Assembly: GCF_044704955.1 (NCBI RefSeq)
Contig: NC_091991.1
Span: 132,990,001-133,054,000 of the forward strand
From: Pristiophorus japonicus
Lineage: Eukaryota
Length of the DNA: 64,000 nt
Direction: 5' to 3'
The notes beneath the pieces are model-generated. The model saw only the letters and a list, made by a program, of their open reading frames with translations, was not told the DNA's origin and did not search any database. The position numbers were made by a program, and so were the translations under genes. The stretch's first letter is position 1. Every line of letters starts with the position of its first letter. Shown one piece after another: positions 1,331 through 60,205 of the stretch.

Positions 1331-1750
1331 CTCCAAGAAACCCACCTACCACCTGCGACAAGCCCAGTTTAGCAGCTATGTCACTCAGGACTCGGCTAGC
1401 TTGGTCAGTGGTGGTACTACCGAGCTACTCTTGGTGATGGACATTGAAGTCCCCTACCCAGAGTGCACTCTGTGTCTTGCGACCTGAAATGCTTCCTTCA
1501 AGTGGTGTTCAACATGGAGAAGTACTGGTTGATCAGCTGAGGGGTGGTGGGGGGTTAGGTGGTAATCAGCACGAGCTTTCCTTTCCCATGTTTGATCTGA
1601 AGCCATGAGGCTTCATGGGAATTGGATTCAATGTTGAGGACTCCCAGGGCCACTCCCCCATGACTGTGTACCGCAGTGCCCCACCTCTGGTGCGTCTGAC
1701 CTGCCGGTGGGACAGGACGTACTCAGGGATGGTGATCAAGGAGTGTGGGA

Positions 1751-3233
1751 CATATAGAAACATAGAAAATAGGTGCAGGAGTAGGCCATTCGGCCCTTCT
1801 AGCCTGCACCGCCATTCAATGAGTTCATGGCTGAACATGCAACTTCAGTACCCCATTCCTGCTTTCTCACCATACCCCTTGATTCCTCTAGTAGTAAGGA
1901 CTTCATCTAACTCCTTTTTGAATATATTTAGTGAATTGGCCTCAACAACTTTCTGTGGTAGAGAATTCCACAGGTTCACCACTCTCTGGGTGAAGAAATT
2001 CCTCCTCATCTCGGTCCTAAATGGCTTCCCCCTTATCCTTAGACTGTGTCCCCTGGTTCTGGACTTCCCCAACATTGGGAACATTCTTCCTGCATCTAAC
2101 CTGTCTAACCCCGTCAGAATTTTAAACGTTTCTATGAGGTCCCCTCTCATTCTTCTGAACTCCAGTGAATACAAGCCCAGTTGATCCAGTCTTTCTTGAT
2201 AGGTCAGTCCCGCCATCCCGGGAATCAGTCTGGTGAACCTTCGCTGCACTCCCTCAATAGCAAGAATGTCCTTCCTCAGGTTAGGAGACCAAAACTGTAC
2301 ACAATACTCCAGGTGTGGCCTCACCAAGGCCCTGCACAATTGTAGCAACACCTTCCTGCCCTTGTACTCAAATCCCCTCGCTATGAAGGCCAACATGCCA
2401 TTTGCTTTCTTAACCGCCTGCTGTACCTGCATGCCAACCTTCAATGACTGATGTACCATGACACCCAGGTCTCTTTGCACCTCCCCTTTTCCCAATCTGT
2501 CACCATTCAGATAATAGTCTGTCTCTCTGTTTTTACCACCAAAGTGGATAACCTCACATTTATCCACATTATACTTCATCTGCCATGCATTTGCCCACTC
2601 ACCTAACCTATCCAAGTCGCTCTGCAGCCTCATAGAATCCTCCTTGCAGCTCACACTGCCACCCAACTTAGTGTCATCCGCAAATTTGGAGATACTACAT
2701 TTAATCCCCTCGTCTAAATCATTAATGTACAGTGTAAACAGCTGGGGCCCCAGCACAGAACCTTGCGGTACCCCACTAGTCACTGCCTGCCATTCTGAAA
2801 AGTACCCATTTACTCCAACTCTTTGCTTCCTGTCTGACAACCAGTTCTCAATCCATGTCAGCACACTACCCCCAATCCCATGTGCTTTAACTTTGCACAT
2901 TAATTTCTTGTGTGGGACCTTGTCGAAAGCCTTCTGAAAATCCAAATATACCACATCAACTGGTTCTCCCTTGTCCACTCTACTGGAAACATCCTCAAAA
3001 AATTCCAGAAGATTTGTCAAGCATGATTTCCCTTTCACAAATCCATGCTGACTTGGACCTATCATATTACCTCTTTCCAAATGCACTGCTATGACATCCT
3101 TAATAATTGATTCCATCATTTTACCCACTACCGATGTCAGGCTGACCGGTCTGTAATTCCCTGTTTTCTCTCTCCCTCCTTTTTTAAAAAGTGGGGTTAC
3201 ATTGGCTACCCTCCACTCCATAGGAACTGATCC
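1751..3233 (-). mobile_element. 5'-truncated young CR1 LINE; RT reading frame open over 1845-3221
   Basis: 458-aa ORF with NYRPVSLTS, YLDFQKAFDKVPH, GVPQGSVLGP and FADD motifs; (tttctatg)n tail. Confidence 0.95.
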
Positions 3234-4254
3234 ATTCTGTAAGGATGGCTATGTCCAGCTGTTGATTGACTAAAATGTGGGACAGCTCTCCCAACTTTGG
3301 CACCAGCCCCCTGATGTTAGTGAGGAGGCCTCCACAGGGTCGGCTGGGCTGGGTATGCCTTTGTTGTGTCCTGTGAATTGTAATTCATTGAATTGTAAAC
3401 ATTGCACCATTTTGTAAATCTATTACTTAAACACAACTGGAATAGTTGCTTTCAGGTGTTTGTGCCATGTTAAATGTCTCAGTGAAAGTACAGATAAGAT
3501 TCTCAAAAATATCGTGGAAATATTGAATACAGTTTCTTAAAACAACAAGAACAATATTGCTAGAGATTAGGACATCAGAAGCTACTATATGTTTGCTATT
3601 GTAGAGCACTTTCACTCGGTTAGGAAACAAAACCCTTTATTATCAATTGCAGCCATGGTACTTCACTTATTAAATACAACTTTCCATTGACCACAATAGT
3701 CCTCAATTCAACATGGCTCCAAAGAGAAGGTAGATTTTTTTCTCCAAGTTCCTTCTCCAGTCTGCAGATTGATCCCGGCTGCGCATTTTTCTAGCCACTG
3801 CACAAAATGAGCTGCATCAATCCTCAATGCAGTCCCTGCCCAACTTTTCCTGACAGTAACACCATCAGCAACTTTCCTTATGACTCTTGAATAATGTGCC
3901 CACAGTTATCAATGTTCTAATAATCAGCCTCACCTCTGCTTTTTTTCTTGTGTTGGTTCATGGATTTGCTCAGTGCTCATCATTGTAATCCAATCTGATC
4001 TCCAGCATATATCTGTAGCACATTCCCAGAGAGGGGTGGAATTCACAGAGCGTACAATCCCTGCTCACAATTGGCTCGCTTTATGTCTTCACAAGAATGG
4101 CACTGCAAACAGTTGCTGTGACCACCCCTGCCCCTCCACAGAACTTGCAAAAAGCTCAGCTGACATCCCCTCACAATTTCACGACATGGCTCCGAGCAGT
4201 TAATCCACTAGGGGGCGATAGACAGAGAGTATGAGGGGAGCACTAATGTGGAAC

Positions 4255-8605: not shown

Positions 8606-9659
8606 AGATCTTCCTGCTCTGGGCTGCGGCCTAGTACCCCACCTGATAGGCAAGCCAACTACAGGCTGTAGGGCGGGAAACCTGGATAAGAACATTTAAA
8701 GAAGGGTGTTGGACTTCCCGTCCATAACTCCACTCCTCTGCTCTGAACACATGCTTCAGTAAATATTGGGGCCAACGTTTCAGGTTGATAGTCTTTCATC
8801 AGAACTACAAGATGTTAGAGATGAACAGATTTCAAGCAAGTTCAGAACCAGGGAAAAGAAAGGGCAGGGAAAGAATGCAAGGGAGAGGTCCATGATAGCG
8901 TGGAGAGCAGGAGTGTTTAAATAACAGGATATGATGGTGCAAGGCAAGAGGAGATGTAATGGGATAGGTATAAAAACAAAAGCTGGGTTGAGAAGAGGTG
9001 TAACTGTTTTCTGCTTAAATTATTGTAAATGTTCAGCCTGGAAATCTGACAAAAAGGATAAATATCCTACAGTAAAGGTTGAACCTTAGGTGACAAGACT
9101 GTAGAAAGGGAACCATTGTTTAAAACTGTTGTTTGCAACATTTTAAAATGTAACCGAGCTGATTTATTCCATTGCATACAACAATTGTGTCAATATCTTT
9201 TAAGGATCAGTTCATGTCTGTATTCACTATCTAAATAGCATGGCAGTTTAAGCAAATCTCTCTTCTACTTTCAGATTGACACAAAGTGCTTATTGCATAT
9301 CTTCCCGCACCAGGCCTCAGCAGCTATTGACAATGGAGCAGACAGAATCCAGCTTTTACAGATTGTTGAGAATTGTCTCCGAATTCAGGAGAAGTACAAG
9401 TGCAGGGGAGTGGATGGATCTTAATTCCTGAATTCCGACAATGTCCTACATTAATCCTTGTTTGGAAGACTTTGTTGAAACGTTTATTTATTTTTTCAGC
9501 AACCTTTTCATAGGGAATGGTCCAAATCCAAACCCTTCAAATGCTGCAATATCCTGCAGCAAAACACAAGTTGTTTTTAAGTTCAATTCCAGAAATGTTA
9601 TGAATGACAGCCATACGTACTCACAGGTTTTATTGTTAAAGATGAATTTGGAAAATGAC

Positions 9660-16178: not shown

Positions 16179-16902
16179 ACTGTTCAAGCAATTATAACTT
16201 TCATCAATAACTGATCAACTTGTGGGAATTTAACAGAAATCAGAACTACATTTCAGGATGTAATGCTGGAGTAAAACTCCTGGTAGATGCTACCAACCCA
16301 CATCATGTTCTCCAGCACTCTCACCATATTCCATTAATCTATTGGGACAGTGTGGGAAAATCATCAAAACAAATTCCATTGGCTCTTCTCTTGAGCTGTC
16401 TCTTGTAATCTTCCTCGTGCCTCCAGGTGCACCCTGGGGAGTATATGATTAACTTAATGTCAAATGATAATGGCTGTCAGGCAATCGATGCCACCGTTCA
16501 GAGTAATGAGCACTTAATGTGAAGCAAAGCCATTAATTAAAATATAAAGTAATATGGTCCCCTGAAACAATCTCCTACAAATTAGTGTGAATCGAGACTC
16601 AGTGGAGGCACAACAATCAAGTAATGCATATATATTAAGCAAACAACACAGATATATTGATGAGAAATCATGCCCCCTGAACAAAAAACGAAATTGCCCA
16701 AAGCGCAACAAAGACGATAAGGAAAATGAATTAATGTAATGTATTTTACAGGGGTCAGGCATGTCTAAACCCACAAGCCTAAGTACTCATGCAATTCAGA
16801 CCACACCACACCACAGTAAGGTGGCCTGCGAAACTCGGCTGGATTTGGAGCTTTATCAAGCAGGAAAGGTTGTCAATGTGGAGTCTCTGCTGTATTTACA
16901 AC

Positions 16903-18689
16903 AGTAATGTATGCACCTGTGAGTATGCTCACAGGTTTGTAGAGCTGTTGCCACCCTGTGCGGAGGGGAGCGGGTAGGTCCGAGGGCCTCCTCGTAGGAC
17001 TGCTCCTGGGCACGGCCAAGGGTGCCATCAGCCGGTCCAGGCAGGGGCGGTCGAGGGGGTCATTCATCCTGACTGCCTGACTCTCTTCCGCGCGTACATC
17101 CGCGCCAGGGTGTCCTTGGAGATGGAGCACGCGGTGTCCACCGGTACGCTCGCAGCCTTCCGTGAGAGGTGGGCGCCGGCGGGACTGGAGTGCATTGTCA
17201 CCCCCGGCAACCAAATTTTAATTTGATTTTATGTTTTAAAGTTTAATTTGTTTTAATTGCTGGAGTTTTAGTGTCCCCCTCCACTTTTATAGGGGGCACT
17301 TGTAAAATATTGAATTTTAATGCCCTAAAAAAACCCCACAAAAAACAACCTACAAAAATACAAAAAAAAACAAAAAAAGAAACAAAAAAAAGAGGGCTGT
17401 TATAAGTGTCTGGAGTGTCCCCCAGATCGGGGGGCACTCGATCTAATGTTGATTTGTACTCCCCAAAATGAGTTGTAGAGCTGTTGCCACCCTGTGCGGA
17501 GGGGAGCAGGCAGGTCAGAAGGCCTCCTCGTAGGACTGCTCCTGGGCATGGCCAAGGGGGCCATCTCCCGATCCAGGCAGCGGGCGGTCGAGGTGGCCGT
17601 TCAGCCTGACTGCCTGCCTCTCTTCCGCAATTACATCTGAGCCAGGGTGTCCCTGGAGATGGAGCACGTGGTGTCCACCGATACGCTCGCAGCCTTCCAT
17701 GAGGGGTGGGACTGGAGTGCATTATTACCCCCGGCAACCAAATTTTAATTTGATTTTATATGTTTTAAAGTATAATTTGTTTTAATTGCCGGTTTTAGTG
17801 TCCCCCTTCCCTTTTATAGGGGGTAGTTTTATATATTCATGTTTTAGAGCCCCCCAAAAAAACACAAAAAAACCAAAAAAGGGCCTGGAAAAATGTTTGG
17901 AGTGTCCCCCAGAGTGGGGGGCACTTGATTTAATTGTTTATTTATTGTTTCTTAACGAAAAGAGTTGTAGAGCTGTTGCCATCCTGTGCGGAGGGGAGCA
18001 GGCAGGTTGGAAGGCCTCCTCTTAGGACTGCTCCTGGGCACGGCCAAGGGGGCCATCTCCCGATCCAGGCAGCGGGCGGTCAAGGGGGTCGTTCAGCCCG
18101 ACTGCCTGCCTCTCTTCCACAGTTACATCTGAGCCAGGGTGTCCCTGGAGATGGAGCACGCGGTGTCCACCGGTACGCTCGTGGCCTTCTGCAAGAGGTG
18201 GGCGCCAGAGGGACTGGAGTGCATCACCACCCCCGGCAACCAACTTTTAATTTGATTTTAATGTCGAAAGTTTAAGTTATTTAAGTTGTTGATTTTCGTG
18301 CATCCCCCCATCCTTTTAGCCAGGGGGCACTTGTATAATTTGTGTTTCTAACGCCCTCAAAAAAAAACAAAGGGGCACTTGAAAAGTTTTTGCGGTGTGC
18401 CTCCCCCTTTAATCAGGGGGGCACTTGATTACTGATACAACTAAAATAGTTGTAGAGCTGTTGCATTGTGAGTGGCTTAGCCAGTCATGTGATGTTCACA
18501 AGATTCAATAAAACCCCAGTCAGTTGGGTCTAAGTCATCCATGATGAGGTATGCAGTTGTGAGCCCGGTGGATGAACTGGTAATGTGCAGTGTGATTGCT
18601 AAACCTTTGTTAATAAATCAACTAGTTCTTAATAGCAACGTGTTGCTATGAATTCTTAAGCAAAGAACCTATGAAGCAAATACATTACA
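16903..18689 (+). mobile_element. Solo LTR interrupted by the Tx1 3'-end array
   Basis: Ends (a)gtaatgtat..atacattaca are inverted; aataaa at ~18507; near-TSD acaac/gcaac. Confidence 0.7.
16952..18449 (+). mobile_element. Three tandem 5'-truncated Tx1 copies (16952-17472, 17488-17964, 17980-18449)
   Basis: Each is homologous to 28380-28890. They are separated and flanked by ttgtagagctgttgc at 16937, 17473, 17965 and 18450. Confidence 0.92.
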
Positions 18690-18794
18690 GCAACAGTAGG
18701 AGCAACAGTGGTGGCTAGACAATTCCTGACAAGTTACACAGTGATTGTATAAAGGCCCCGAATTCTCCAATTTTTATCCCACAACCACCATCAC

Positions 18795-20240: not shown

Positions 20241-22633
20241 CTTCTCCCTCCTTGATGAAGAAGTAATCATAACAAAATAATCATTACATATAACTTGCAT
20301 GGGTTATACACAACAAAAGATATGGACTTATTTTGGCATATTTACAAATCAAGCTTAACCACTGGTTTTCTGTTTCGAAGAGGATACCTTCGCTCTCGAA
20401 CAGAACTTTCCAAACATGGTGTTGAACTGAGGCAGAGCCTGAGGAGAGTTTGTTTCTTGATCTACATTTTGACTCTCTACAACTTCATACTGTTTGACTG
20501 CCTGACTCGTGAGACTTAAATTCTGACTTTCTCTTGGACTTGTTTCTAGTACATCTGATGTAGGATTTGCTACTGGTACTGTACTTGTAACAAGATTATC
20601 TGACTCATCAGAAATAATCGAATCATTCCAACTTTCAACTCCTTCCACATCTGTAGGTAAAATATGATCAATGTGAACAAACCAAACCTGTCCATGATCA
20701 AACATCTTGACCAAATATGTGCGAGGACCACATATCTTCACTATTCTTCCTGGTAACCACTTTAACCATTTATGGTGATGATTCTTCACTCTAACCTTCT
20801 GATTTAATTTCACACTTCTCTCTCTTACTCTACCTCTATCATGATTCTCTTTCTGCTTTTATTGTTTCTCTTCGACTGACTGTGCCAAGTTTGGCTTTAA
20901 CAACGGGAACTTGGTTCGTGGCTGTCATTTGAGAAACAACTCTGCTAGTGTTGTACCAGTAGTTGTATGAGGAGTATTGCGATAACATAAGAATATAAGA
21001 ATTAGGAACAGGAGTAGGCCATCTAGCCCCTCGAGCCTGCTCCGTCATTCAACAAAATCATGGCTGATCTGGCTGTGGACTCAGCTCCACTTACCCGCCC
21101 GCTCCCCATAACCCTTAATTCCCTTATTGGTAAAAAATCTATCTATCTGTGACTTGAATACATTCAATGAGCTAGCCTCAACTGCTTCCTTGGGCAGAGA
21201 ATTCCATATATTCACAACCCTCTGGGAGAAGAAATTCCTTCTCAACTCGGTTTTAAATTGGCTCCCCCGTATTTTGAGGCTGTGCCCCCTAGTTCTAGTC
21301 TCCCCTACCAATGGAAACAACCTCTCTGCCTCTATCTTGTCTATCCCTTTCATTATTTTAAATGTTTCTATAAGATCACCCCTCATCCTTCTGAACTCCA
21401 ACAAGTAAAGACCCAGTCTACTCAATCTATCATCATAAGGCAACTCCCTCATCTCTGGAATCAGCCTAGTGAATCGTCTCTGTACCCCCTCCAAAGCTAG
21501 TATATCCTTCCTTAAGTAAGGTGACCAAAACTGCACGCAGTACTCCAGGTGCGGCCTCACCAATACCCTGTACAGTTGCAGAAGGACGTCCCTGCTTTTG
21601 TACTCCATCCTTCTCGCAATGAAGGCCAACATTCCATTCGCCTTCCTGATAACCTGCTGCACCTGCAAACTAACTTTTTGGAATTGAGTTTCATGCACAA
21701 GGACCAATTGTGGAGCAGTGGAGGCGTGTCCTGCTCAGTTGGAGCTGTGAGCAGTGAGAGGAGCAGCTACCAACTTGAGCTCCTGCCTGGAGAGCCCTGA
21801 GAACAGCCCAGGAAGAGAAGGAAGGAAGGGGCTTCACCACCAACTTTCACCCAGAGGGAGAGGAGGAGAAAAGGAAACTTTTTAACAACTTTTTGCCATT
21901 CTGCAATGAGTTGGAGAGAGGGGGAAAGACCAACAAACATCCAGTGTGGAAGGAGGGAGACTCTACCATTCAACAGGTGGGTGTGGGTGCATTTCCCAAA
22001 AAGACTTTGTTATATCGGTGGGGGGAGGTAAGAAGACCACTGAGGGCTGGAACATCGCGGGGGGTGTGTGTGTGTGTGGAAGTGTGTGTGGGGGCCTTGC
22101 TTACAACTAGGCCCCCCCCCCACAATTAGAACCCCCCCCCACCCCCCCACATTTGCCTAGCCTGGGATAGCTGGAGCTACCAGGCTGAAGATTTTTCTTA
22201 ATCACCCTATTAACATCGTTAGGAGTGTGTGCCTGGTGGCTCTAGCTGCCCCAGGTGAAGACGTCTTCCCCCCCCACCTGAAGACCAATCCAAAGACTGT
22301 GTTTTTTGTGTTTTGCCATCTGGGGAGTGCACCCACCCACAGCTGCGAGGGGAGACCTGCCCTCGCAGTTCCCCCCCCCTTCCCACCCCCCTCTCTCTTT
22401 CTCCGTTACTCCCTGTTTCTCCCCTCTCTCTCTGAGAGCCCTTTTCTTCCCAAATCAATTAAAAAAAAAACAATTGAGACAACTGAGCAGAGGGAGCAAG
22501 GCCCCTCCCCAATTGCCAACTAGGGGAGAGGTGCCTCGTTAAGGGCTCCTCTGCTCAGTTAATATACGAGGCCAATAAAGACCATTAAGGCCTGTGACTT
22601 TGGGGTGGGTGTAGCCCTTAAAGGGACCCCGTG

Positions 22634-24733
22634 ATGGCGACCCCATCCACGCCGGTGGCAGGGCCAGCGAGGACATATGCGCAGGTGGCAACCGCTTCCA
22701 CGGCACCTCCAGCGCCACCCGCTGCCCTGCCACCATTCAGATTAATTACAAAAAAACACGGGGTCAAGAGCTACACTCACCCCACAATGAGCATCGAGGA
22801 GTGCGTGCGGGCGATGGCTGGGGTAGTCGGCCCCTCGGCCATTGTCGCAGCCTCCAAGATGTCTGGGAAGGCCGTGTTCTTCCTGGGGTCGGAGCGGGCG
22901 GTGTCCCTGGCCCTTGAAAAGGGGCTCACGGTGGGCGGGACGTTCCTGCCGGTGGACCCTCTCGAGGCCACCGCGCAGAGGTTCATCATTTCAAACGTCC
23001 CTCCCTTTGTTCCCGCTGAGCTCCTCCTCCCTCACCTACAACAACTGGGGGAGGTAAGGTCGGGGATCAACCCCATACCGCTCGGCCTCAGGGAGAACAG
23101 CCTGCGCCACGTGTTCTCCTTCCGCCGCCAGCTCTTTGTCCGGCTGGCGCGGGAGGACATGACGGAAGGGCACTTTAATGTGGTGCACGAGGGGACTGCC
23201 TACCGCGTCTTCTGGACGTTGGACGGCGTGCGGTGCCATGCCTGCAGAGAGGTGGGGCACATTCGCAAGAACTGCCCCGCCTCCAAGGCCGCCAAACCAC
23301 CGAAGGCGGCCAAGGCTGGCGCCGCCGCCACCCCTCCCCCAGTTGCGTCCGCGTGCCGGGAGCCATAGGTGCGCGGGCATCGCCGGGGGCCCTTGCTATT
23401 ACGGCCTCCGGCGGGGGGGAGGAAGAGCATCCGATCGGAAGGAAGGCGCGGGAGAAGGCAAAACATCCAGAGGCGGGTCCCCTCGGTGCGCCAGACAATT
23501 TGTTTACCGCGCTCGGCCCAACCCAGTCACCGGCGAGCGCGGGGTGCCCCGAGCCCGTGCCCGAGCCCTTGAACAACACCACAGAGGGGCCCGGGCGCGG
23601 GCAAGAAAAGGAAAAGGGGGGGGCGGAGCGGGAGGCCTCGGCAGACATGGAGGTCTCCCTGCCTCCGCGCACCCCCAGGAACAAAAGGAGGCGTGGCTCC
23701 GATGAGGGGGAGGGGGAACAACATCCCTCCACGGAGGAGTCGGTGCCCGCCGCGTGTCCCGCGTCCCCAACCAGCGCCCCCAAGCTGCGCTGTAGGCGAG
23801 AGGAGTCTGTCCCCGGGGAGGGTGAGACAGTCGAGACTGCCCAGCCTCTGCCTCCCGGGGATGGCGTGGAAGATCTACCTGTCATGGGGGGGCATGGGGA
23901 TCGCGGAGGAATGCATTGCCGCCGGGCCGGGCGTCCCGGGGACTGAGGCGGGCGGGGCCGAAAAGGCCGAACCTGAGCCCGCCCAGCCAATACCCAACTT
24001 CCCCCGGGAGTCGCTCAACCCGGCAGAAAATGAAACGATTGTTTATAATGACACTGTAGATGCTGGGCCGGGGGGTGGCAGCGGGGAGGGGGAGGAACAC
24101 CCACCCTCGCCTCTTGCTGTGGAGCTGGAGCACTTGGAGAGCCTGGGGATTTCCTATGGCCGGGTCTCTCCTTGTTCCCCGGTTCCTGGGGCGGAGGGGG
24201 AACCCCTTCCGCTGTCATTTCCCGACCCAGCACCATTTTTAAAAGAGCCCAGTGGGGACTCCTCTGCCGACGATCCTGGGGGTGGGATCGGGGCAGAGCC
24301 AGGGCCGGTTGGAGCGGCCGGTTCATTTGCCCTACCTTGTGCGGTCGATGGGCCGGCTGCTGGCGGCCACCTCCCGGAGGAGGACGGGGACTCGGTGGGG
24401 GACGCGGGTGAAGACCTAGAGACCACCGCCAGCGAGGCGGTGGATCTGCTCGCGGCCGCCGCCGAGACCATCCTCATTCCTGCAAAGGAACTCCGGGACT
24501 TTTTGGCCCAGAGCCGGGGTCACTGCAACCAAGCCCGACTGGCCCTGGAAAAATGGTCCGAGCCAGAGCTGATCAAGGGGTCCGTCCGCGCCGCCGTTAA
24601 AACCTTGGCCGCGGGCGGGCCCTTGACAAAGGCGCAACACCTTGAGCTGCGCGAGCTCGAGGGACTCCTCGCTGGGCTGCGGAGGGAGCGGAGTTCAACA
24701 AAAGACTCCGCTCCCTCCCCCACAATAGGTTAA
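22634..24733 (+). pseudogene. Tx1 ORF1 (RNA-binding region, CCHC knuckle, Pro/Glu-rich tail), frameshifted
   Basis: IISNVPPFVPAELL; CHACREVGHIRKNC; the reading continues through overlapping ORFs 23233-23946 and 23693-24733. Confidence 0.82.
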
Positions 24734-24759
24734 GGTAGAGGTTGCACTATGCTTTTGCC

Positions 24760-27700
24760 ATGAAGATAACCATAGCCAGCCTCAACATCAACGGCGGCAG
24801 AGGGGCACGCCGTAGATTTGACAATTTTTCGCTCCTGCGGGAGGGGAAATATGCGGTGTGCTTCCTGCAAGAAACCCACACCGTTCCGGGAGACAAAGCC
24901 ACGTGGCTCCTGGAATGGCAAGGAGAGGTCCGCATGAGCCACCTCACCGCCATTTCTAGTGGGGTGGCCATCTTGCTGGGCCCGCATTTTCAGCCGGAGA
25001 TCTTGGGGGTCGAGGAGCCCGTGCCAGGCCGCTTGCTGCACGTAACGGTTCGCCTGGGGGACGTGCCGCTCCATCTCGTGAACGTGTACGCCCCTCAGCC
25101 CGGCCCGCAGCAGACGCGCTTCTTTGAAGAGGTGTCCGCTCTTCTTGGCTCCGTCGACGTCGGCGACTGCATTGTCCTCGGGGGGGATTTTAACTGCACC
25201 CTCGAGGCGAGGGACCGCTCCGGTGCCCCGCAGTGCATGACGGCGATGGAGAAGTTGAGGGACCTGGTCAGGTCCTTCGACTTGGTGGACGTCTGGCGAA
25301 ATCTCCATCCCGACTCCAGCGCCTTCACTTGGGTGAGGCCTGGAGTTGGATGGTCTAGAGTCGACCGCCTTTACGTGTCTCGGGCGTACGTTTCCTGCGT
25401 CCCGGCGGCCTCCATGCGGCCGGTGCCGTGTTCGGACCACCACCTGGTGTGGGCGGAGCTCGCTTCGCTCCGCGCGAGGACGGGGTCCGCGTACTGGCAC
25501 TTTAACAACCGACTGCTGGAGGACGTGCGGTTCCAGGACTCGTTCCGTCGATTCTGGTCCGACTAGAGAAGGAAGCAGGGGGGCTTCCCCTCCTTGAGGC
25601 TATGGTGGGACGTGGGCAAGGCTCACGTCCACGTCTTCTGTCAAGAGTACGCGAGGGGGTCGACCAAGAGGCGGGCGGCCAGAGTCGGGCGCCTAGAAAA
25701 AGAGGTGCTCGACCTGGAAGCCCGTCTCGGTCAAGTCGTCCAGGACCCGGCCCTGCGGACAGTGTACGAAGCGAAGAAGGCCGCGCTGAAGGACCTGCAG
25801 CTCGCCGGGTCCCGAGGCGCGTTCGTGAGGTCGCGGATCCGGTTCCTGCGGGATCTGGACCGCGGCTCCCCCTTCTTCTACTCGCTGGAAAAAGGCAGTG
25901 TCCGTAAGCAGCTCTTGACGCTGCTGGCCGACGACAGCTCTCTCGTCTCGGATCCAGAGGGCGTCAACAACAGGGCCCGTGAATATTACGGGGCTCTGTT
26001 CTCTCCGGATCCGTCCAGCGAGGAAGCGCGTAGAGTTTTGTGGGAGGACCTGCCGAAGGTCAGCCCGGAGGGCGGCGAAAATCTGGAAGCTCCGCTAAGC
26101 CTGGCGGAGCTGACCGGTGCCCTCGACCGGCTCTCGAGGGGAAAATCCCCGGGGCTGGACGGGCTGACTGTGGAGTTCCACAGGGCGTTCTGGGACGTCC
26201 TGGGGAGCGACTACGCGCGGGTCCTGGGGGAAAGTCTGGCGACCGGGGAGATGCCCCTCTCTTGGCACAGGGCAGTCATCGTCCTGCTGCCTAAGAAGGG
26301 CGATCTCCGCCTCCTTAAGAACTGGCGCCCGGTCTCCCTCCTCAGCACGGACTACAAAATTTTCGCCAGGGCGATGTCTGCTCGCCTTGGTGCCGTGCTG
26401 GACCACATGATCCACCCCGACCAGTCCTACACGGTCCAGGGCCGGACAATCCACGATAACATCCATCTGGTCCGGGACCTCATCCATTGTTCCCAGGAGG
26501 CTGGTCTGTCGGTCGCCTTCCTATCCCTCGACCAAGAGAAGGCGTTCGACAGGGTGGATCACGACTATCTGCTCGGAACTCTGCGCGCTTTCGGGTTCGG
26601 GACGCATTTCGTCGCCCGGATCCAACTTTTGTACGCCGCCGCGGAGTGTCTGATTAAGGTTAACGGGTCCTTGACGGCGCCCCTTCGCTTTAGGAGAGGG
26701 GTGCGCCAGGGATGCCCCATGTTCGGCCAGTTATACGCCGTTTGCGTGGAGCCTTTCCTGCGCCTCTTGCGGACGAGGTTGACGGGACTGGCTCTGCAAG
26801 GGCCGGGCGTGGAGGTCGTCCTCTCGGCTTACGCCGATGACGTGCTCCTCGCGGTAGAGGATCCCGCTGACCTGCGGAGGATGCGTGAGTGCCAGGAGAT
26901 TTACTCGGCCGCGTCCTCCGCCAGGATCAACTGGGAGAAATGTTCCGGACTCCTGGTGGGTCAGTGGCGGGTGGACTCCCTGCCGGGGGAGCTCAGGCCT
27001 TTTGCCTGGAGCACGACCCATCTCCTCTATCTGGGAGTCTACCTTAGCCCCGACGAGGGAGCCTGGCCGGCGAACTGGCAGGAGCTGGAGGCCAAGGTCG
27101 CCGCTCGCCTAGGGCGCTGGACAGGACTGCTCCGAGTGCTGTCCTACAGGGGTCGAGCGCTAGTCATAAACCAGCTGGTGGCCGCAATGTTGTGGTACCG
27201 GCTGGTCACTTTGACCCCTCCCCCTGCGTTTGTCGCCAAGATACAGAAGAAGCTGGTGGACTTCTTCTGGAACAACAGGAAGCACTGGGTCTCTGCTGCG
27301 GTCTTGAGTCTCCCGCTTGAGGAGGGCGGTCAGTCGTTTGTGTGCGTCAGCGCCCAGCTCGCGACTTTCCGTCTTCAGACCCTGCAGAGATACCTTTACG
27401 TCGAGCCCCCTCCTAGGTGGTGCGCTCTGGCGAGGTATTTCTTCCGCCAGCAGCGCGACCTCAATTATGACACGCAGCTCCTGTTTGTGAACTTGGGGGG
27501 TGCCAGGACCGCCCTCCGGGAGCTGCCTGTCTTTTACAGGGAACTCATCAGGTCTGGAACAAAGTCTCCACCAAGCGCAGCTCTCCGCCGGCTGGAGTGG
27601 CGGCCGTCCTGCAGGAGCCGCTGCTCGGGAATCCGTACCTCCACGACCGAGGTTTTATGTGGCGGTCGGAAGAGAGGGCTGTGGCTGGTGAGGTGACCAG

Positions 27701-28655
27701 GGTCAGGGACCTGCTCGATGGCGGAGGAGCGGGCTGGATGGCGCCAGACACGCTGGCGCGGCGCCTAAATTCTGCCAACGTCCGCCACGCGGCCGATGCC
27801 ATCGAGTCGCTAAAAACAGCTCTGGGCCCTGACTCCGTTAGGTGCATCGAGGAGGCTCAAGCACGTGGGGAGATCCCGTCCGAACTGACCCCCGTCCGGA
27901 CGGAATTCCTCATCGGCGCCAAACCCTGGAACCTCCCTCGGGGGCCGGCGCCTCACAACTTGAGCCGCCTCGGGGAAATCCCCTCCGTGCCTTTCAGTTC
28001 CGCGCGGAGGGGTTTCCTGTACGGGCTGCTCCTGCACACTCTCAACTTTGCCATCCTCGCCGGCCGTCCGGACACGCCATGGCGTACCATCTTGCCGTCC
28101 GGAGGAGGCGGGGGTCCCCGATGGAGGGCACTCTACGCAGGGGTCCTCCCACTATTCATCGGGGACTTGGCCTGGAGGGTGGTGCACGGAGCAGTGCCGT
28201 GCAATAAATTTTTAAGCCGGTTCACGGACTCCCAGGCCGCCTGCAATTTCTGCGGTCTGGAAGAGTCCGTGTTCCATGTTTTTATGGAATGCACAAGGTT
28301 GCAGCCCCTGTTTTATTATTTGAAGGGGCTGCTCCTGAAATTCTGGCTGCACTTCAGTCCCACTCTCCTGATCTTTGGGCACCCTGTGCGGAGGGGAGCG
28401 GGTAGGTCCGAGGACCTCCTCGTAGGACTGCTCCTGGGCACGGCCAAGGGTGCCATCAGCCGGTCCAGGCAGCGGGCGGTCGAGGGGGTCGTTCAACCTG
28501 ACTGCCTGCCTCTCTTCCGCTCTTACATCCGGTCCAGGGTGTCCTTGGAGATGGAGCACGCAGTGTCCACCGGTACGCTCACGGCCTTCCGCGAGAGGTG
28601 GGTACCGGAGGGACTGGAGTGCATCATCACGCCCGGCAACCAAATTTTAATTTGA
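24760..28655 (+). pseudogene. Tx1 ORF2 (APE endonuclease, RT, C-terminal zinc finger) with one stop (25564) and one clear frameshift (~27550)
   Basis: SLNING, FLQETH, GDFN, SDH; KNWRPVSLL, LDQEKAFDRV, GVRQGCP, YADD; CNFCGLEESVFHVFMEC. Confidence 0.92.
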
Positions 28656-31317
28656 TTTTACGTTTTAAAGTTTAATTTGTTTTAATTGCCGGTGCTTTTA
28701 GTGTCCCCTTCCCTTTTATAGGGGGCACTGGAAAAATGTGATTTTAGCGCCCAAAAAAAACCCCAAAAAAATGAAAAACACAAAAAAAAAACCAAAAAAA
28801 GGAAAAAAGGGCCTTGTAAATGTCTGGTGTGTCACCCAGGTCGGGTGGCACAGTTTAATGTTTTATGTTTTTGCAGGTGAACTCCAAAAAGAGTTTCATG
28901 CACAAGGACCCCCAGGTCCCTCTGCACCGCAGCATGTTGTAATTTCTCCCCATTCAAATAATATTCCCTTTTACTGTTTTTTTTTCCAAGGTGGATGACC
29001 TCACATTTTCAGACATTGTATTCCATCTGCCAAACCTTAGCCCATTCGCTTAACCTATCTAAATCTCTTTGCAGCCTCTCTGTGTCCTCCACACAACCTG
29101 CTTTCCCACTAATCTTTATTTCATCTGCAAATTTTGTTACACTACACTCTGTCCCCTCTTCCAGGTCATCTATGTATATTGTAAACAGTTGTGGTCCCAG
29201 CACCGATCCCTGTGGCACACCACTAACCACCGATTGCCAACCTGAAAAGGACCCATTTATCCCGACTCTCTGCTTTCTGTTAGTTAGCCAATTCTCAATC
29301 CATCTTCTGACTCTGCGTACCTTTATCTTCTGCAGTAACCTTTTTGTGGCACCTTATCGAATGCCTTTTGGAAATCCAAATACACCACATCCATCAGGAC
29401 ACCTCTATCCACCATGCTCGTTATATCCTCAAAGAATTCCAGTAAATTAGTTAAACATGATTTCCCCTTCATGAATCCATGTTGCGTCTGCTTGATTGCA
29501 CTATTCCTGTCTAGATGTCCCGCTATTTCTTCCTTAGTGATAGCTTCAAGCATTTTCCCCACTACAGATGTTAAACTAACCAGCCCATAGTTACCTGCCT
29601 TTTGTCTGCCCCCTTTTTTAAACAGAGGCGTTACATTAGCTGCTTTCCAATCCGCTGGTACCTCCCCAGAGTCCAGAGAATTTTGGTAGATTATAACGAA
29701 TGCATCTGCTATAACTTCCGCCATCTCTTTTAATACCCTGGGATGCATTTCATCAGGACCAGGGGACTTGTCTACCTTGAGTCCCATTAGCCTGTCCAGC
29801 ATTACCCCCCTAGTGATAGTGATTGTCTCAAGGTCCTCCCTTCCCACATTCCTGTGACCAGCAATTTTTGGCATGGTTTCTGTGGCTTCTACTCTGAAGA
29901 CCGAAGCAAAATAATTGTTTAAGATCTCAGCCATTTCCACATTTCCCATTATTAAATCCCCCTTCTCATCTTCTAAGGGACCAACATTTACTTTAGCCAC
30001 TCTTTTCCGTTTTATATATCGGTAAAAGCTTTTACTATCTGTTTTTATGTTTTGCGCAAGTTTACTTTCATAATCTATCTTTCCTTTCTTTATTGTTTTC
30101 TTAGTCATTCTTTGCTGTCGTTTAAAATTTTCCCAATCTTCTAGTTTCCCACTAACCTTGGCCACCTTATACGCATTGGTTTTTAATTTGATACTCTCCT
30201 TTATTTCCTTGGCTATCCACGGCTGGTTATCCCTTCTCTTACCGCCCTTCTTTTTCACTGGAATATATTTTTGTTGAGCACTGTGAAAGAGCTCCTTAAA
30301 AGTCCTCTACTGTTCCTCAATTGTGCCACCATTTAGTCTGTGTTCCCAGTCTACTTTAGCCAACTCTGTTACCAACTAAGTTATCAGAAAATTTGCCAGT
30401 TTGTGATCCAAACACAACTGCCGTTTCTTTGGATATGGATCCAAAATTTGCTTGATAGGGCATGTTTTACAATTTGTACTGTGCGCTCTGCTGCACCATA
30501 TGAAGCAGGGTAGTACGGTGGAACCATTTCTGCTCATAAACTGTGCAATTTCTTCTGAACAACATTGTGGCCCATTATCAGACACAATTTCTTCTGGGAG
30601 GCCATATGAAGAAAACAATCTTTGCAAATTGTCTAGTGTTTTACTTGTTGTTATTTTCTGCAAAGGAAACACCTCTACCCGTTTTGAATGGCTATTACTC
30701 ACAATGAACAACTGTTGTCCTTCTAACTCAGCAAAATATACTTGTAACCTTTGCCACAAACTGGGTGGTCATTTCCATGGCTGTAATGGTAGTGATGGTA
30801 GTTTCTTGATTTCCGATTGACATGTTGTACACTGACTAGCGATGTACTTTATATCTTTACCTAAACCTGGCCACCATAAGTAACTCCATCCAAACTCTTG
30901 GTCAAGCATATTCCCAGGTGCTGGTAATGAAGATCTGCTAATAATTTGGACCTGAATTTATCTGGAATAACTACTCTTGTATCCCACATGATACAATCTT
31001 TATCCACTGATAATACGAACAAAATATGGATGAATATCTTTCTTTGATGCCTAGTTTGGCCAGCCATTTGCTATGTAATGATACACCTTTGACATAACTG
31101 GGTCACACTTGGTTGCTCTGCCAATCTCTTCAGCTGTGACTGGGTGTAACTTGTGATGAGGAACCTGGACATAGCATCAGCATTACTGTGAAGAGCTGAT
31201 CATCCGTATTCAATGTCACACATATAGGCTGACAAAATCAAAGCCGATCTCTACATTCGGGCTGGAACTAGGGACTTTGGATGGAGGATTGCTGTCAGGG
31301 GCTTATAGTCAGTAACG

Positions 31318-40659: not shown

Positions 40660-41825
40660 AGGAATGGGAGGAGGAGAGGAGGGACAGAAGAGACAGGAGG
40701 GCGAGGAGGGCAAGGAGGGTGAAGAGGGACAGGAGGGACAGAAGGATGAGGAGGGTGAGGAGGGCGAGGAGGGACATAGAAAATAGGTGCAGGAGTAAGC
40801 CATTCGGCCCTTCGAGCCTGCACCACCATTTATTAAGATCATGGCTGATCATTCACCTCAGTACCCCATTCCTGCTTTCTCTCCATACCCCTTGATCCCT
40901 TTAGCCATAAGGGCCATATCCAACTCCCTCTTGAATATATGTAACGAACTGGCCTCAACAACTCTCTGCGGAAGAGAATTCCATGGGTTAACAACTCTCT
41001 GAGTGAAGAAGTTTCTCCTCATCTCGGTCCTAAATGGCCTACCCCTTATCCTTAGACTGTGTCCCCTGGTTCTGGACTTCCCCAACATCGGGAACATTCT
41101 TCCTGCATCTAACCTGTCCAATCCCATCAGAATTTTATATGTTTCTCTGAGATCCCCTCTCATTCTTCTAAACTCCAGTGAATACAGGCCCAGTCGATCC
41201 AGTCTCTCCTCATATGTTAGTCCTGCCATCCCGGGAATCAGTCTGGTGAACCTTCGCTGCACTCCCTCAATATTAAGAACGTCCTTCCTCAGATCAGGAG
41301 ACCAAAACTGAACACAATATTCCAGGTGAGGCTTCACCAAGGCCCTGTACAACTGCAGTAAGACCTCCCTGCTCCGATACACAAATCCCCTAGCTATGAA
41401 GGCCAACATGATAGGAGAGTGAGGAGGGACAGGAGGGACAGGAGGGCGTGGAGGGACAGGAGGGCAAGGAGGGTGAGGAGGGACAGGAGGCGAGGAGGGA
41501 CAGGAGGAACAGGAGGGCGAGGAGGGACAGGAGGGCGAGGAGGGCGAGGAGGGCGGGGAGGAACAGGAAGGCAAGGAAGGTGAGGAGGGCGAGGAGGGAC
41601 AGGAGGGCGAGGAAGGCGAGGAGGGACAGGAGGGACAGGAAGGCGAGGAGGGCGAGGAGAGACAGGAGGGACAGGGAGAGTGAGGAGGGACAGGAGGGAC
41701 AGGAAGGCGAGGAGGGCGAGGAGAGACAGGAGGGACAGGGAGGGCGAGGAGGGACAGGAGGGACAGGAGAGTGAGGAGGGACAGGAGGGCGAGGAGGGAC
41801 AGGAGGGACAGGAGGACGAGGAGGG
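40660..41825. repeat. GA-rich 9-bp minisatellite (ggagggaca / ggagggcga), split by a CR1
   Basis: Dozens of 9-bp units at 40660-40776 and 41411-41825. Confidence 0.92.
40776..41410 (-). mobile_element. 5'-truncated CR1 LINE
   Basis: MLAFIARGF..EKAGMGY* plus CR1 3' UTR. Confidence 0.92.
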
Positions 41826-42361
41826 CTCCAGGTTCGAGGTGATTTGCTGCGTGCTCCACAGTCTGGCGATCCTGGGAGACCAGGCGTTATCACCAGCAAT
41901 GGTGCCAGAGGGACAAACTCAGGAGTCACAAGGAGCAGGAGGAAGAGGATCTGGTGAAGGAGGAAGACGAGGGGTCCAGGGGGAGCACCAGAGGGTTGCA
42001 GGTCGACGGCCCACACTCGGGAGGGACGCGGGCAGCCATCTAATTGAAGATCGCTTTTGATAGAAGCCCTCCACCATCAGACTGCGGGGCACTGTTCCCA
42101 TGTGCCTTAACTTCCACAACTCAGGATCCCCCCAAAACTCCACCATCTGCACTCAATCCTTTCAATACCTTCCCCATGAACAACACAATAAAAAAAGCAC
42201 AAATTCCTCCACTACTCAATTACCAAAATCATTCTTTATCAAGAGCAAAAACAAACAATGAAACATGACATAACCAACAGCACTTACAGATATAAAACTA
42301 TTCATCCTGGTGCTTACCATTAGTGGCGATCTCGAAGTGCTCTTGCCGACTCTGGTGCTTC

Positions 42362-55810: not shown

Positions 55811-58800
55811 GGGCTAGAACCTCCACTTTTTTTGTATGCTTAACGCCCACTCAAAGCCCATTTTACTGCTGAAATGACACAAAATGGAAACTGACGGGCT
55901 TTTTTAGGAGACTTATCGCCGAGCGTTATCTTCCCAATGGGCTTAACGGCGGAAAGAAATATTACCACCCGCCCACTTTTCTTCGACGGAATCAGCAGAA
56001 TGGGCGAAAGCAATGGCTATAATATCGCCCAGCGTTACTTTCCACACGGAATTAACGCCGAGATTCAATGCCTGCTCACTGTTTTTTGTCATGAAGAGCA
56101 TATTTACCCAAACTAGCGGCCATGGAGATCGCCCATCGTCAATTTCACCACCTCGCTCACATATCGCCCATAATATCGCTCGCTCAAAAAGCTGCCCACA
56201 AAAAGTGGAACTAACCGGAACGAATGCCAGCGCTGTGGCTGGAATTTGTTAAATCCCACTCTTATGTGAGGAGCTGTTATCGGAAAGATTTGCCTGAAAG
56301 AGCGCTGATGTGGGAGACAACGCTGACACACTGCTGTTTGTGTGCACCTCAGACATCAATGGTGCCCATCACCTTGGTGCCAGTTAAAGTTTACATTGAT
56401 TGATGTTAAGTTGGTTTTAACCCTTTCCTGGTAAGGAACCACCAGTGTGTAACGGTCCAGCTATCTGAGACAATGCGCAACAAGGTTATGTTCAATAACA
56501 AAACTTTAATACCGACATTGGTCTGAAATCATAAGTATTACAGCCAATAACACCCAACCCCCGCCCACACCCCATTGGTTAAAGAGGAGATTAATGCAAT
56601 AGTTAGGAAGGACATTAGCTTGGATGATGTGGAATCTATATGGGTAGAGCTGCTGAACACCAAAGTCAAAAAACGTTAGTGGGAGTTGTGTACAGACCTC
56701 CAAACAGTAGTAGTGATGTTGGGGGGGGGCATCAAACAGGAAATTAGGGGTGCATGCAATAAAGGTGCAGCAATTATAATGGGTGACTTTAATAGGCACA
56801 TAGATTGGGCTAACCAAACTGGAAGCAATACGGTGGAGGAGGATTTCCTGGAGTGCATAAGGGATCGTTTTCTAGACCAATATGTCGAGGAGCCAACTAG
56901 GGGGGAGGCTATCTTAGACTGGGTGTTGTGTAATGAGAGAGGATTAATTAGCAATCTCGTTGTGCGAGGCCCCTTGGGGAAGAGTGACCATAATATGGTG
57001 GAATTCTACATTAGGATGGAGAATGAAACAGTTAATTCAGAGACCATGGTCCAGAACTAAAAGAAGGGTAACTTTGAAGGTATGAGGCGTGAATTGGCTA
57101 GGATAGATTGGCGAATGATACTTAAGGGGTTGACTGTGGATGGGCAATGGCAGACATTTAGAGACCGCATGGATGAACTACAACAATTGTACATTCCTGT
57201 CTGGCGTAAAAATAAAAAAGGGAAGGTGGCTCAACCGTGGCTATCAAGGGAAATCAGGGATAGTATTAAAGCCAAGGAAGTGGCATACAAATTGGCCAGA
57301 AATAGCAGCGAACCCAGGGACTGGGAGAAATTTAGAACTCAGCAGAGGAGGACAAAGGGTTTGATTAGGGCAGGGAAAATGGAGTACGAGAAGAAGCTTG
57401 CAGGGAACATTAAGACGGATTGCAAAAGTTTCTATAGATATGTAAAGAGAAAAAGGTTGGTAAAGACAAACGTAGGTCCCCTGCAGTCAGAATCAGGGGA
57501 AGTCATAATGGGGAACAAAGAAATGGCAGACCAATTGAACAAGTACTTTGGTTCGATATTCACTAAGGAGGACACAAACAACCTTCCAGATATAAAAGGG
57601 GTCAGAGGGTCTAGTAAGGAGGAGGAACTGAGGGAAATCCTTATTAGTCGGGAAATTGTGTTGGGGAAATTGATGGGATTGAAGGCCGATAAATCCCCAG
57701 GGCCTGATGGACTGCATCCGAGAGTACTTAAGAAGGTGGCCATGGAAATCGCGGATGCATTGACAGTTATTTTCCAACATTCCATTGACTCTGAATCAGT
57801 TCCTATCGAGTGGAGGGTAGCCAATGTAACCCCACTTTTTAAAAAAGGAGGGAGAGAGAAAACAGGGAATTATAGACCGGTCAGCCTGACATCAGTAGTG
57901 GATAAAATGATGGAATCAATTATTAAGGATGTCATAGCAGCGCATTTGGAAAGAAGTGACATGATAGGTCCAAGTCAGCATGGATTTGTGAAAGGGAAAT
58001 CATGCTTGACAAATCTTCTGGAATTTTTTGAGGATGTTTCCAGTCGAGTGGACAAGGGAGAACCAGTTGATGTGGTATATTTGGACTTTCAGAAGGCTTT
58101 CGACAAGGTCCCACACAAGAGATTAATGTGCAAAGTTAAAGCACATGGGATTGGGGGTAGTGTGCTGACATGGATTGAGAACTGGTTGTCAGACAGGAAG
58201 CAAAGAGTAGGAGTAAATGGGTACTTTTCAGAATGGCAGGCAGTGACTAGTGGGGTACCGCAAGGTTCTGTAATGGGGCCCCAGCTGTTTACACTGTACA
58301 TTAATGATTTAGACGAGGGGATTAAATGTAGTATCTCCAAATTTGAGGATGACACTAAGTTGGGTGGCAGTGTGGGCTGCGAGGAGGATGCTATGAGGCT
58401 GCAGAGTGACTTGGATAGGTTAGGTGAGTGGGCAAATGCATGGCAGATGAAGTATAATGTGGATAAATGTGAGGTTATCCACTTTGGTGGTAAAAACAGA
58501 GAGACAGACTATTATCTGAATGGTGACAGATTAGGAAAAGGGGAGGTGCAACGAGACCTGGGTGTCATGGTACATCAGTCATTGAAGGTTGGCATGCAGG
58601 TACAGCAGGCGGTTAAGAAAGCAAATGGCATGTTGGCCTTCATAGCGAGGGGATTTGAGTACAGGGGCAGGGAGGTGTTGCTACAGTTGTACAGGGCCTT
58701 GGTGAGGCCACACCTGGAGTATTGTGTACAGTTTTGGTCTCCTAACTTGAGGAAGGACATTCTTGCTATTGAGGGAGTGCAGCGAAGGTTCACCAGACTG

Positions 58801-60205
58801 ATTCCCGGGATGGCGGGACTGACCTATCAAGAAAGACTGGATCAACTGGGCTTGTATTCACTGGAGTTCAGAAGAATGAGAGGGGATCTCATAGAAACTT
58901 TTAAAATTCTGATGGGTTCAGACAGGTTAGATGCAGGAAGAATGTTCCCAATGTTGGGGAAGTCCAGAACCAGGGGTCACAGTCTAAGGATAAGGGACAA
59001 GCCATTTAGGACCGAGATGAGGAGAAACTTCTTCACCCAGAGAGTGGTGAACCTGTGGAATTCTCTGCCACAGAAAGTTGTTGAGACCAATTTACTAAAT
59101 ATATTCAAAAAGGAGTTAGATGAAGTCCTTAGTACTAGGGGGATCAAGGGGTATGGCGAGAAAGCAGGAATGGGGTACTGAAGTTGAATGTTCAGCCATG
59201 AACTCATTGAATGGCGGTGCAGGCTAGAAGGGCCGAATGGCCTAATCCTGCACCTATTTTCTATGTTTCTATGTTTTCCTCCATTGACATAAATTACATG
59301 TTCAACATGTCCAGCAACACAGAATACAAAAGCAAAGCAGGAGCATGGTCTCCAGCCCCCATACATTGCAACAAATTGCATACACACAAATGGAGAGATA
59401 ACAGAGCCATCACCTGCGCACATGCACCTCACCTTCCTTCCCCCCTCTCCTTCTTCTCCCCACCTCTACCTCGTCCCCTCCTCGCTCCATGGTGCCTGGC
59501 CAAGGAGCACCTCAAGCGGTGCCTCATTGGGGGGGGTGAAGGTAGATGTGGTGGTTGCACGGGTACGGGCGCGGTGGGTGCCGAGGGGGCAACATTCTCT
59601 GATGCAGAAGCAGGATCTTGGTCCTTGTTCTCATCTGCCATTCGCAGTGGTGGTGCGGAACCTAGGGGTGGAGTGCCGCGCTCAGGGACCACTGGGAGGT
59701 CTGTGGCAGCAGTGTTCTTGGCTACCAGCTAAAGGGCCTCCTCCATCCCTTCCATGTTATATCTTAATTGTTGGACAAAAACTCGGTGCCAACTATGTTC
59801 TTGGTGCTTAGTAGGCTTTTTGCTCCTGATGAATCTCTGTTGTGCTGCCCACAACAGCCTGACAAACACACACCACAGCCACAGATGCTTTCAGTGCCTC
59901 TGAGCTCCCTCTCACTCTGTCTCCTCTTCTGCGCATGTCATGATGACCCTTGATCTTCTGAAATGTGGGAATCGAGCATTGCCATGCCGTTGCTAAGGAC
60001 GGCCATACTTTAAGGCAGAAGGTCCAAAAAAGTTAACGCTACTGCCCACTTGATATCGCTCGCAGTAACGCCCATTTTCAAAAATATAAACTAGGTGTTT
60101 TGAGAATGAGCGAGAAGCCGGCAATCTGAAAACCCTTTTTCAACGCCCATGCCGGAAATAATGCCCATTTTAGGGCGCTAAGCACAACAGTGGAGGTTCT
60201 AGCCC
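55811..60205. mobile_element. Non-autonomous Harbinger with nested CR1
   Basis: Perfect 17-bp TIR gggctagaacctccact / agtggaggttctagccc; perfect 3-bp TSD AAT. Confidence 0.9.
56575..59273 (+). mobile_element. Young CR1 LINE, 5'-truncated within the endonuclease; 699-aa open RT frame at 57082-59181
   Basis: All CR1 RT motifs are present but FADD reads FEDD; stop at 57058; near-identical to the 1751-3233 copy. Confidence 0.95.

Follow-up and report, generated by a model that had tools for sequence, protein, structure and literature searches.

Stacked Tx1-like LINE insertions in solo LTRs of Pristiophorus japonicus probably take over the 5' end of their older neighbour

In a 64,000-nucleotide stretch of the Pristiophorus japonicus genome, hereafter the window, three 5'-truncated units of a Tx1-like LINE stand one behind the other in a solo LTR, begin at the same base of the element and carry different 3' UTRs. 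Such stacks are most probably the product of repeated target-primed insertion in which each new unit captures the 5' end of its neighbour. They resemble duplications but would be a dated series of separate insertions, which shows how the integration of a LINE finishes.

All parts of the array lie on the forward (+) strand. The left 49 nt of the solo LTR (16903..16951) end with copy 1 of a 15-nt target duplication (16937-16951). Unit 1, the youngest (16952..17472), is composed of the 3' end of ORF2, starting at the equivalent of position 28380 of the full-length copy present in the window, and of a 246-nt UTR with two hairpins. It is followed by target duplication copy 2 (17473..17487), by unit 2, a chimera with a UTR of 211 nt (17488..17964), by target duplication copy 3 (17965..17979) and by unit 3, the oldest unit and founder of the breakpoint, with a UTR of 194 nt (17980..18449). 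The right part of the LTR (18450..18689) begins with target duplication copy 4, has an AATAAA at 18507 and contains the terminal inverted repeat. The 5-bp duplication around this LTR (16898-16902 and 18690-18694) matches at four of its five bases.

The sequence-only reading of this DNA had described three units with a common start and a 15-mer occurring four times around them. All three do begin at the base equivalent to 28380, and the 15-mer is found exactly four times in the window (starts 16937, 17473, 17965 and 18450), the average in shuffled sequences being 0.17. The same reading placed unit 1 nearer to the full-length copy, whose alleles unit 1 indeed bears, and named diagnostic bases common to units 2 and 3, which we also find; the strong UTR differences that it saw correspond to pairwise identities of 0.75, 0.70 and 0.67 after homopolymer collapse. 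One refinement concerns the full-length copy used as reference, which is a member of a sister subfamily and goes to another target.

The units of the window array differ by 7-14%. Among 155 units, units 2 and 3 are mutually nearest in their first 166 nt, and in the last 110 coding nt they rank 122 and 140 relative to each other. Unit 2 is a chimera, its first ~165 nt being closest to unit 3 and its last 110 coding nt and UTR coming from a younger subfamily. The 5' likeness of unit 1 to unit 2 is shorter than 20 nt, the two differing from position 20. The UTR of unit 3 represents a dispersed subfamily, with 39 scored places at other loci and 85-90% identity. Among the short contigs from four public runs none covers the whole array, and one covers the left flank (16800-16931).

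The target repeat is about 274 bp long, has TG...CA ends with 10-bp inverted termini and receives the units 34 bp in. A perfect 5-bp duplication flanks 16 of 46 copies and no other length was found. Moreover, in 33 of the first 100 matches listed for LTR ends followed by TGG, one common motif starting with TGG occurs 3 nt past the LTR end, and this motif is presumably similar to the 3' end of tRNA-Ser. Because of its ends, its inverted termini, the flank duplication and the primer-site-like motif, the target can be classified as a solo LTR, and the LTR target of the earlier reading is thereby borne out. In the host genome (5.9 Gb) a 30-mer across the insertion site is matched exactly at 1,514 places, and the end of the element joined to the LTR-site duplication (the 3' junction) at 9,018. 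A target duplication of 14-18 nt was found at 120 of 120 unit starts.

The full-length Tx1-like LINE of the sister subfamily (21706..28893, + strand) lies inside a CR1-type LINE and is flanked by a 17-nt target duplication (21689-21705 and 28894-28910). Its ORF1, which starts at 22634, is frameshifted and encodes a CCHC knuckle, seen as a CX2CX4HX4C motif in the translation; a Pfam search with this ORF1 gave no match. A separate ORF1 with a CCHC zinc knuckle is a feature of the Tx1 clade. ORF2 has the order APE-RT-zinc (PF03372, PF00078 and PF13966, the last just under the cut-off) and is interrupted twice, by a stop codon at 25564 and, close to 27550, by a frameshift. Its best matches are vertebrate LINE proteins, one of them named TX1 149-kDa protein (45% over 640 aa), and against structures it is nearer to L1 ORF2p (E 1e-53) than to R2 (1e-20). 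A search of NCBIfam returned generic matches only. We call the element Tx1-like, a designation suggested by its domains and best protein matches. It has no terminal poly(A) tail, and the AATAAA of the LTR is placed just downstream of the array. Some copies of the element lie off target. Along the series of subfamilies the 3' UTR becomes longer, the early form having a single hairpin (~70-120 nt) and the later form two (~190-260 nt), as for example at window 17227-17472, L111 and L198.

Two samples of loci were used. The target-chosen sample comprises the first 100 LTR sites listed on contig C1, of which 99 were parsed (L169 was dropped), and loci L001-L090 were selected by likeness to the window units. 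L027 was left out as a flank-sharing copy of L018, and 13 duplicate loci were merged. Among the 99 target-chosen sites 44 are empty, 51 are filled (50 by script and L170 by hand) and four are unclear; the filled sites consist of 16 with a single unit and 35 stacks of two to seven units. A breakpoint was counted as shared when adjacent coding units started within 6 nt in the automatic parse. This is the case for 45 of 58 adjacent pairs in the target-chosen sample, against 119 of 6455 (1.8%) between loci, and for 93 of 137 adjacent pairs in all 140 loci, against 661 of 38834 between loci. In the hand lists, which include UTR-only and SINE units, the breakpoint is shared by 47 of 80 adjacent pairs, one of them full-length, and 54 of the 80 share it with some unit to the right. 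The sequence-only reading had a single locus before it; across filled sites a shared breakpoint is what is usually found.

In the hand lists there are 69 pairs whose right unit has its start upstream of the stop codon; the left unit shares the breakpoint in 47 of these 69, is shorter in 22 and longer in none. The lists stop at an interruption in L146, after which further units follow, including one longer-left pair. About ten left units extend past a shorter neighbour, which speaks against neighbour capture; the first unit of L191 runs past a non-adjacent neighbour and about eight further cases are found in the likeness-chosen loci. Transduction, by which whole stacks would have moved to new sites, was rejected because only 1.8% of pairs between loci share a breakpoint. 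The same junction and flank occur on two contigs in two instances (L201 and window 21610-21720; L018 and L027), which may be duplicated segments or host-amplified insertions.

A genome search for the window junction, proposed in the sequence-only reading, gave six occurrences, two of these in the window, against the 9,018 exact 3' junctions. The distribution of 5' breakpoints, likewise proposed there, shows 77 founders scattered over the element and differing between loci. These results bear on one explanation put forward in that reading, a non-autonomous derivative of fixed length with this LTR as its target. Recurring fixed-length fragments at the second, CR1-type target site (9 of the first 30 matches listed) would suit such a derivative, but they have common flanks, so that it was the host repeat that amplified them. 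Since breakpoints are specific to each locus and the window junction occurs only six times, a fixed-length derivative is excluded; no single 5' start was found at many unrelated loci.

The UTRs set the units of a stack apart. For all 69 shared-breakpoint pairs in which both units have a UTR, including 34 of 34 target-chosen ones, each UTR has a closer relative at some other locus than in the adjacent unit, and plain tandem duplication, already judged insufficient for the UTR divergence when only the window had been inspected, is indeed inadequate. The coding parts show a gradient. Private alleles of the right unit are also present in the left unit at 50 of 165 positions less than 60 nt from the breakpoint, at 30 of 212 between 60 and 150 nt and at 37 of 815 beyond, and for the target-chosen loci only the same bins give 20/83, 9/109 and 16/422; the expected sharing is about 2%. 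An exponential fit has a decay length of 63 nt (95% interval 39-100, locus bootstrap), and a steep fall improves the log-likelihood by 46 over flat sharing. Two results blur this picture. Pairs scored as non-sharing still have 11 of 71 private alleles in common near the start. In triplets, alleles confined to the left and right units were seen 7 times, and the two neighbour-only patterns 12 and 9 times.

Uniform divergence across coding and UTR parts, with no UTR subfamilies elsewhere, had been named as the sign of a simple old duplication; what we find is a steeply declining allele sharing and UTRs that match dispersed subfamilies. An old plain tandem duplication with fast-changing UTRs, or an artefact of the assembly, would give units with a common breakpoint and junction, and no read spanning the array was seen. 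Nevertheless the gradient of shared alleles is steep rather than flat, the UTRs have their relatives at other loci, the units are 7-14% apart and 35 of the 51 filled sites are stacked, and we hold this explanation to be very improbable. A tandem duplication array was rejected, as neighbours are not nearest relatives along their whole length and the allele gradient removes duplication.

The order of the units within a stack was examined through their UTRs, which were put into four classes after inspection, ranging from a short form with one hairpin to a long form with two, 55 of 288 units staying unclassified. The CpG decay of these classes is 220/638, 299/1145, 63/372 and 312/2153 (0.35, 0.26, 0.17 and 0.15). 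The younger UTR class lies on the left in 56 pairs, on the right in 7 and is equal in 27, the corresponding target-chosen counts being 26, 2 and 13. CpG decay calculated pair by pair agrees more weakly (46 versus 23 of 76 pairs, P=0.005; target-chosen 21 versus 10 of 32, P=0.08). In addition, rare alleles number 69, 91 and 139 in left, middle and right units, and in the clusters with both end types among the matches listed the young type is on the left in 10 of 10 (one already sampled). The 7 of 63 ordered pairs that are reversed count against the explanation we favour.

The direction of transfer was followed at 10 subfamily-diagnostic sites in 19 pairs with a young left and an old right unit. 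Young left units bear the old allele at 13/18, 13/24 and 5/51 in order of distance, and lone young units at 2/10, 3/17 and 6/82, whereas right units near the breakpoint keep the old allele in 16 of 19 cases. As old alleles are found in the 5' ends of young left units while the right units stay old, the transfer goes from old to young: information passes from the old unit to the 5' end of the new one.

This order is also where the 3'-end replacement suggested by the sequence-only reading fails as the main route. According to that explanation a unit would be duplicated in tandem and then replaced from RNA beyond its first ~60 nt, a route that likewise leaves chimeric units with old sequence at the 5' end. 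It could accommodate L191, where two units have one UTR as unequal crossing-over would yield, and L033, with an A-B-A-B order and four different UTRs. Unreplaced duplicates should then be common, yet the neighbour has the nearest UTR in none of 69 pairs, and the last unit should also be hit, yet the younger class is on the left by 56 to 7. We consider this route quite improbable.

The other proposal of that reading, the re-targeting of a rebuilt site with homology-guided 5' joining, is supported and accounts for breakpoint sharing, allele decay, lack of kinship between UTRs, direction and the pattern at the CR1-type site. The LINE inserts at one site of the LTR, and the 14-18-nt duplication restores that site at the left junction, as the junctions themselves display. 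The enzyme would cut the restored left junction again; order and age show that later subfamilies insert there and that the stacks extend leftwards. Most new units are chimeric, with a 5' tract of ~60 nt on average corresponding to the older right neighbour and the remainder coming from the new RNA; the old tract brings along the neighbour's breakpoint, extra junction bases and private mutations, all visible in the structure of the units.

The joining step is inferred from the end products. The upstream target end may be extended over the 5' part of the old copy, or paired with it, and then anneal to the new cDNA where the two are homologous, after which surplus cDNA would be trimmed and second-strand synthesis primed at the annealed stretch. 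A brief stretch copied from the DNA of the older neighbour's 5' end would form the join and amount to a long target duplication, and cDNAs stopping short would give a new, shorter breakpoint. As for the invading strand, an extended target end would suit the block duplications and a template switch of the cDNA the A-B-A stacks. L1 cDNA is reportedly able to pair with nearby or endogenous homologous DNA (Gilbert et al. 2005).

Extra junction bases are repeated in neighbours at L011, L015 and L087. At L191, L197, L199 and L172 the repeated block comprises an unrelated mini-unit and the beginning of the unit after it; the blocks are 88-99% alike and the UTRs behind them 59-83%. In L197 the mini-unit is a 5S rRNA-derived SINE, so its repetition must stem from DNA copying. 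Of 120 unit starts not one has more than 18 target bases. The default cut therefore leaves no long target tail, and long copying is seen only where homology is reached. L012 and L079 are A-B-A stacks in which the young left unit matches a non-adjacent old unit. The SINE of L197 (348-466 and 1278-1394) ends in the tail of the LINE, has the same insertion site and was apparently mobilised by the LINE. At L172 the copied block includes only ~17 nt of the neighbour before a shorter cDNA follows, which is copying without full capture. The left flank at L012:1300-1351 looks like a hybrid of LTR and middle-unit tail, as if copying had overrun the duplication.

The main rival is conversion at a later time: a copy would insert independently at the left junction, and its 5' junction would afterwards be converted from the neighbour when a nick or break at the restored site is repaired. 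The end product would be the same, and so would the direction if breaks begin at the left junction; the A-B-A stacks L012 and L079 show copying from a non-adjacent unit. However, the first insertion would have to reach the neighbour's breakpoint. With first insertions only as baseline, because the whole set of founder breakpoints is biased short by capture, 31-44 of 69 new cDNAs are predicted to do so and 47-49 are observed in the hand-curated lists (P<0.01 up to a tolerance of 150 nt, P=0.10 at 250 nt; P<0.005 with one pair per locus). Moreover, stacks only 1.3-3.5% diverged already share the breakpoint, and the homology anchor on the left side is just 15 nt. Later conversion therefore appears unlikely.

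With its hand lists and older-subfamily baseline, the same comparison hints that cDNAs are longer than the part that is kept. To our knowledge, the joining of LINE 5' ends and the cause of truncation in most copies are still unsettled. We tentatively put forward, as a possibility with somewhat less than even chances, that 5' truncation is set at joining, by the homology of the upstream target end on a cDNA usually longer than the part kept, and not by the polymerase falling off. If this were true, a resident copy would capture nearly every cDNA that reaches its breakpoint, and each site would be a one-way record of subfamily succession, here including the change of target from LTR to CR1-type.

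For the younger subfamily, to which the full-length copy of the window belongs, the end plus duplication has 14,553 exact matches, a number that is overstated because of the fragments amplified with the host repeat (the 9 of 30 mentioned above). Among the matches listed, nine of ten pairs in truncated clusters at the CR1-type site were examined and seven share a breakpoint. The shared breakpoints lie 1.2-2.5 kb from the 3' end, the UTR variants differ and the divergence is 1.3-3.5%. Right-unit alleles are common to the left unit at 4 of 144 positions, and identity to the window copy declines from left to right in five of five stacks, four of which had been selected by junction spacing. In L240 and L237, also at this site, the breakpoint is not common.

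A decayed LTR-site target duplication (21706..21719, + strand) forms the 5' end of the CR1-targeting subfamily and makes up the first 14 nt in 20 of 20 fetched 5' ends of this subfamily; full-length copies at the LTR site begin directly after the true duplication. The retained 14 nt are a trace of the ancestral target, the element having switched from the LTR to a CR1-type LINE. In L222-L235, CR1-type LINEs carry a fixed Tx1 3' fragment of ~300 nt (5 loci) or ~30 nt (4 loci). Full-length copies also occur head to tail with ~7.2-kb spacing at C1:9710119-9765228 (8 consecutive junctions) and C22:39278787-39300560. Within such stacks locus-private 5' junction variants are common to the copies (L249/L250; L206, L207, L212, L213), and in the C22 stack the 3' ends differ.

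Target-specific LINEs of the Tx1 clade include Tx1, Keno, Kibi, Koshi and Tx1-Mar, and Tx1-8_Crp and Tx1-4_AMi are found on LTR retrotransposons (PMC4494074, accessible text). The present element resembles them in being an APE-RT LINE that targets a repeat and makes a duplication of ~15 nt, and its LTR-element target has precedent there; tandem SINEU-3 copies flanking a duplication were attributed in that paper to sequential insertion. Shared truncation points, chimeric units and age order in stacks are, in contrast, not reported in the accessible text of that source. In the Drosophila rDNA R1 arrays, too, an existing copy receives new ones in the duplication at its 5' end (PMC2718515, accessible text), and in our stacks the copies are likewise split by the target duplication and added at the 5' junction. 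There too cDNA annealing to the upstream target primes the second strand, although by microhomology or rRNA sequence borne on the transcript and not through a neighbouring copy, and identical tandem junctions were interpreted as amplification of a single event. Double-insertion TE dimers resemble our stacks in that site preference leads to head-to-tail dimers with a duplication in the junction; distinct 5' truncations marked independent insertion in that case (6/10 jockey dimers; PMC5932611, accessible text), whereas here they are mostly shared.

L1 cDNA can join through 25-150 nt of homology, templated insertions of <250 bp come from beside the site and long duplications appear as large target duplications (10.1101/2024.08.27.596794, PMC13526784, 10.1101/2024.12.14.628481; accessible portions). 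These portions present such pairing as rare side events in tumours or cell lines, suppressed by mismatches, whereas for the present LINE it would be the majority germ-line outcome, across several percent of divergence and through a long succession of subfamilies. In R2, pairing of cDNA and target is the favoured priming (PMC13580325, accessible text). Re-insertion has been described before, as has homology-primed joining; no account of breakpoints that are usually inherited was found in the literature searched (without Repbase and most subscription papers).

The thousands of stacks amount to one experiment repeated many times by nature, in which a given site is seen both with a homologous copy beside the nick and without one; capture rate and tract length can be read from the sequences alone. 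A shared truncation can no longer be taken as a sign of duplication, as has been the working rule, and subfamilies can be put in order without a clock. The stacks also suggest that a short homology already present at the site determines the 5' junction, which is relevant to RNA-templated gene insertion. If the truncation is set at joining, equal-length LINE tandems in other genomes, usually called duplications, may be neighbour-captured insertions.

Elsewhere in the window we also observed an inverted pair of 1,488-nt LINE fragments (1747-3234 and 57792-59279), 97% alike, an RT frame of 706 aa at 57061-59181 and a tract of 9-nt tandem repeats at 41386-41843.
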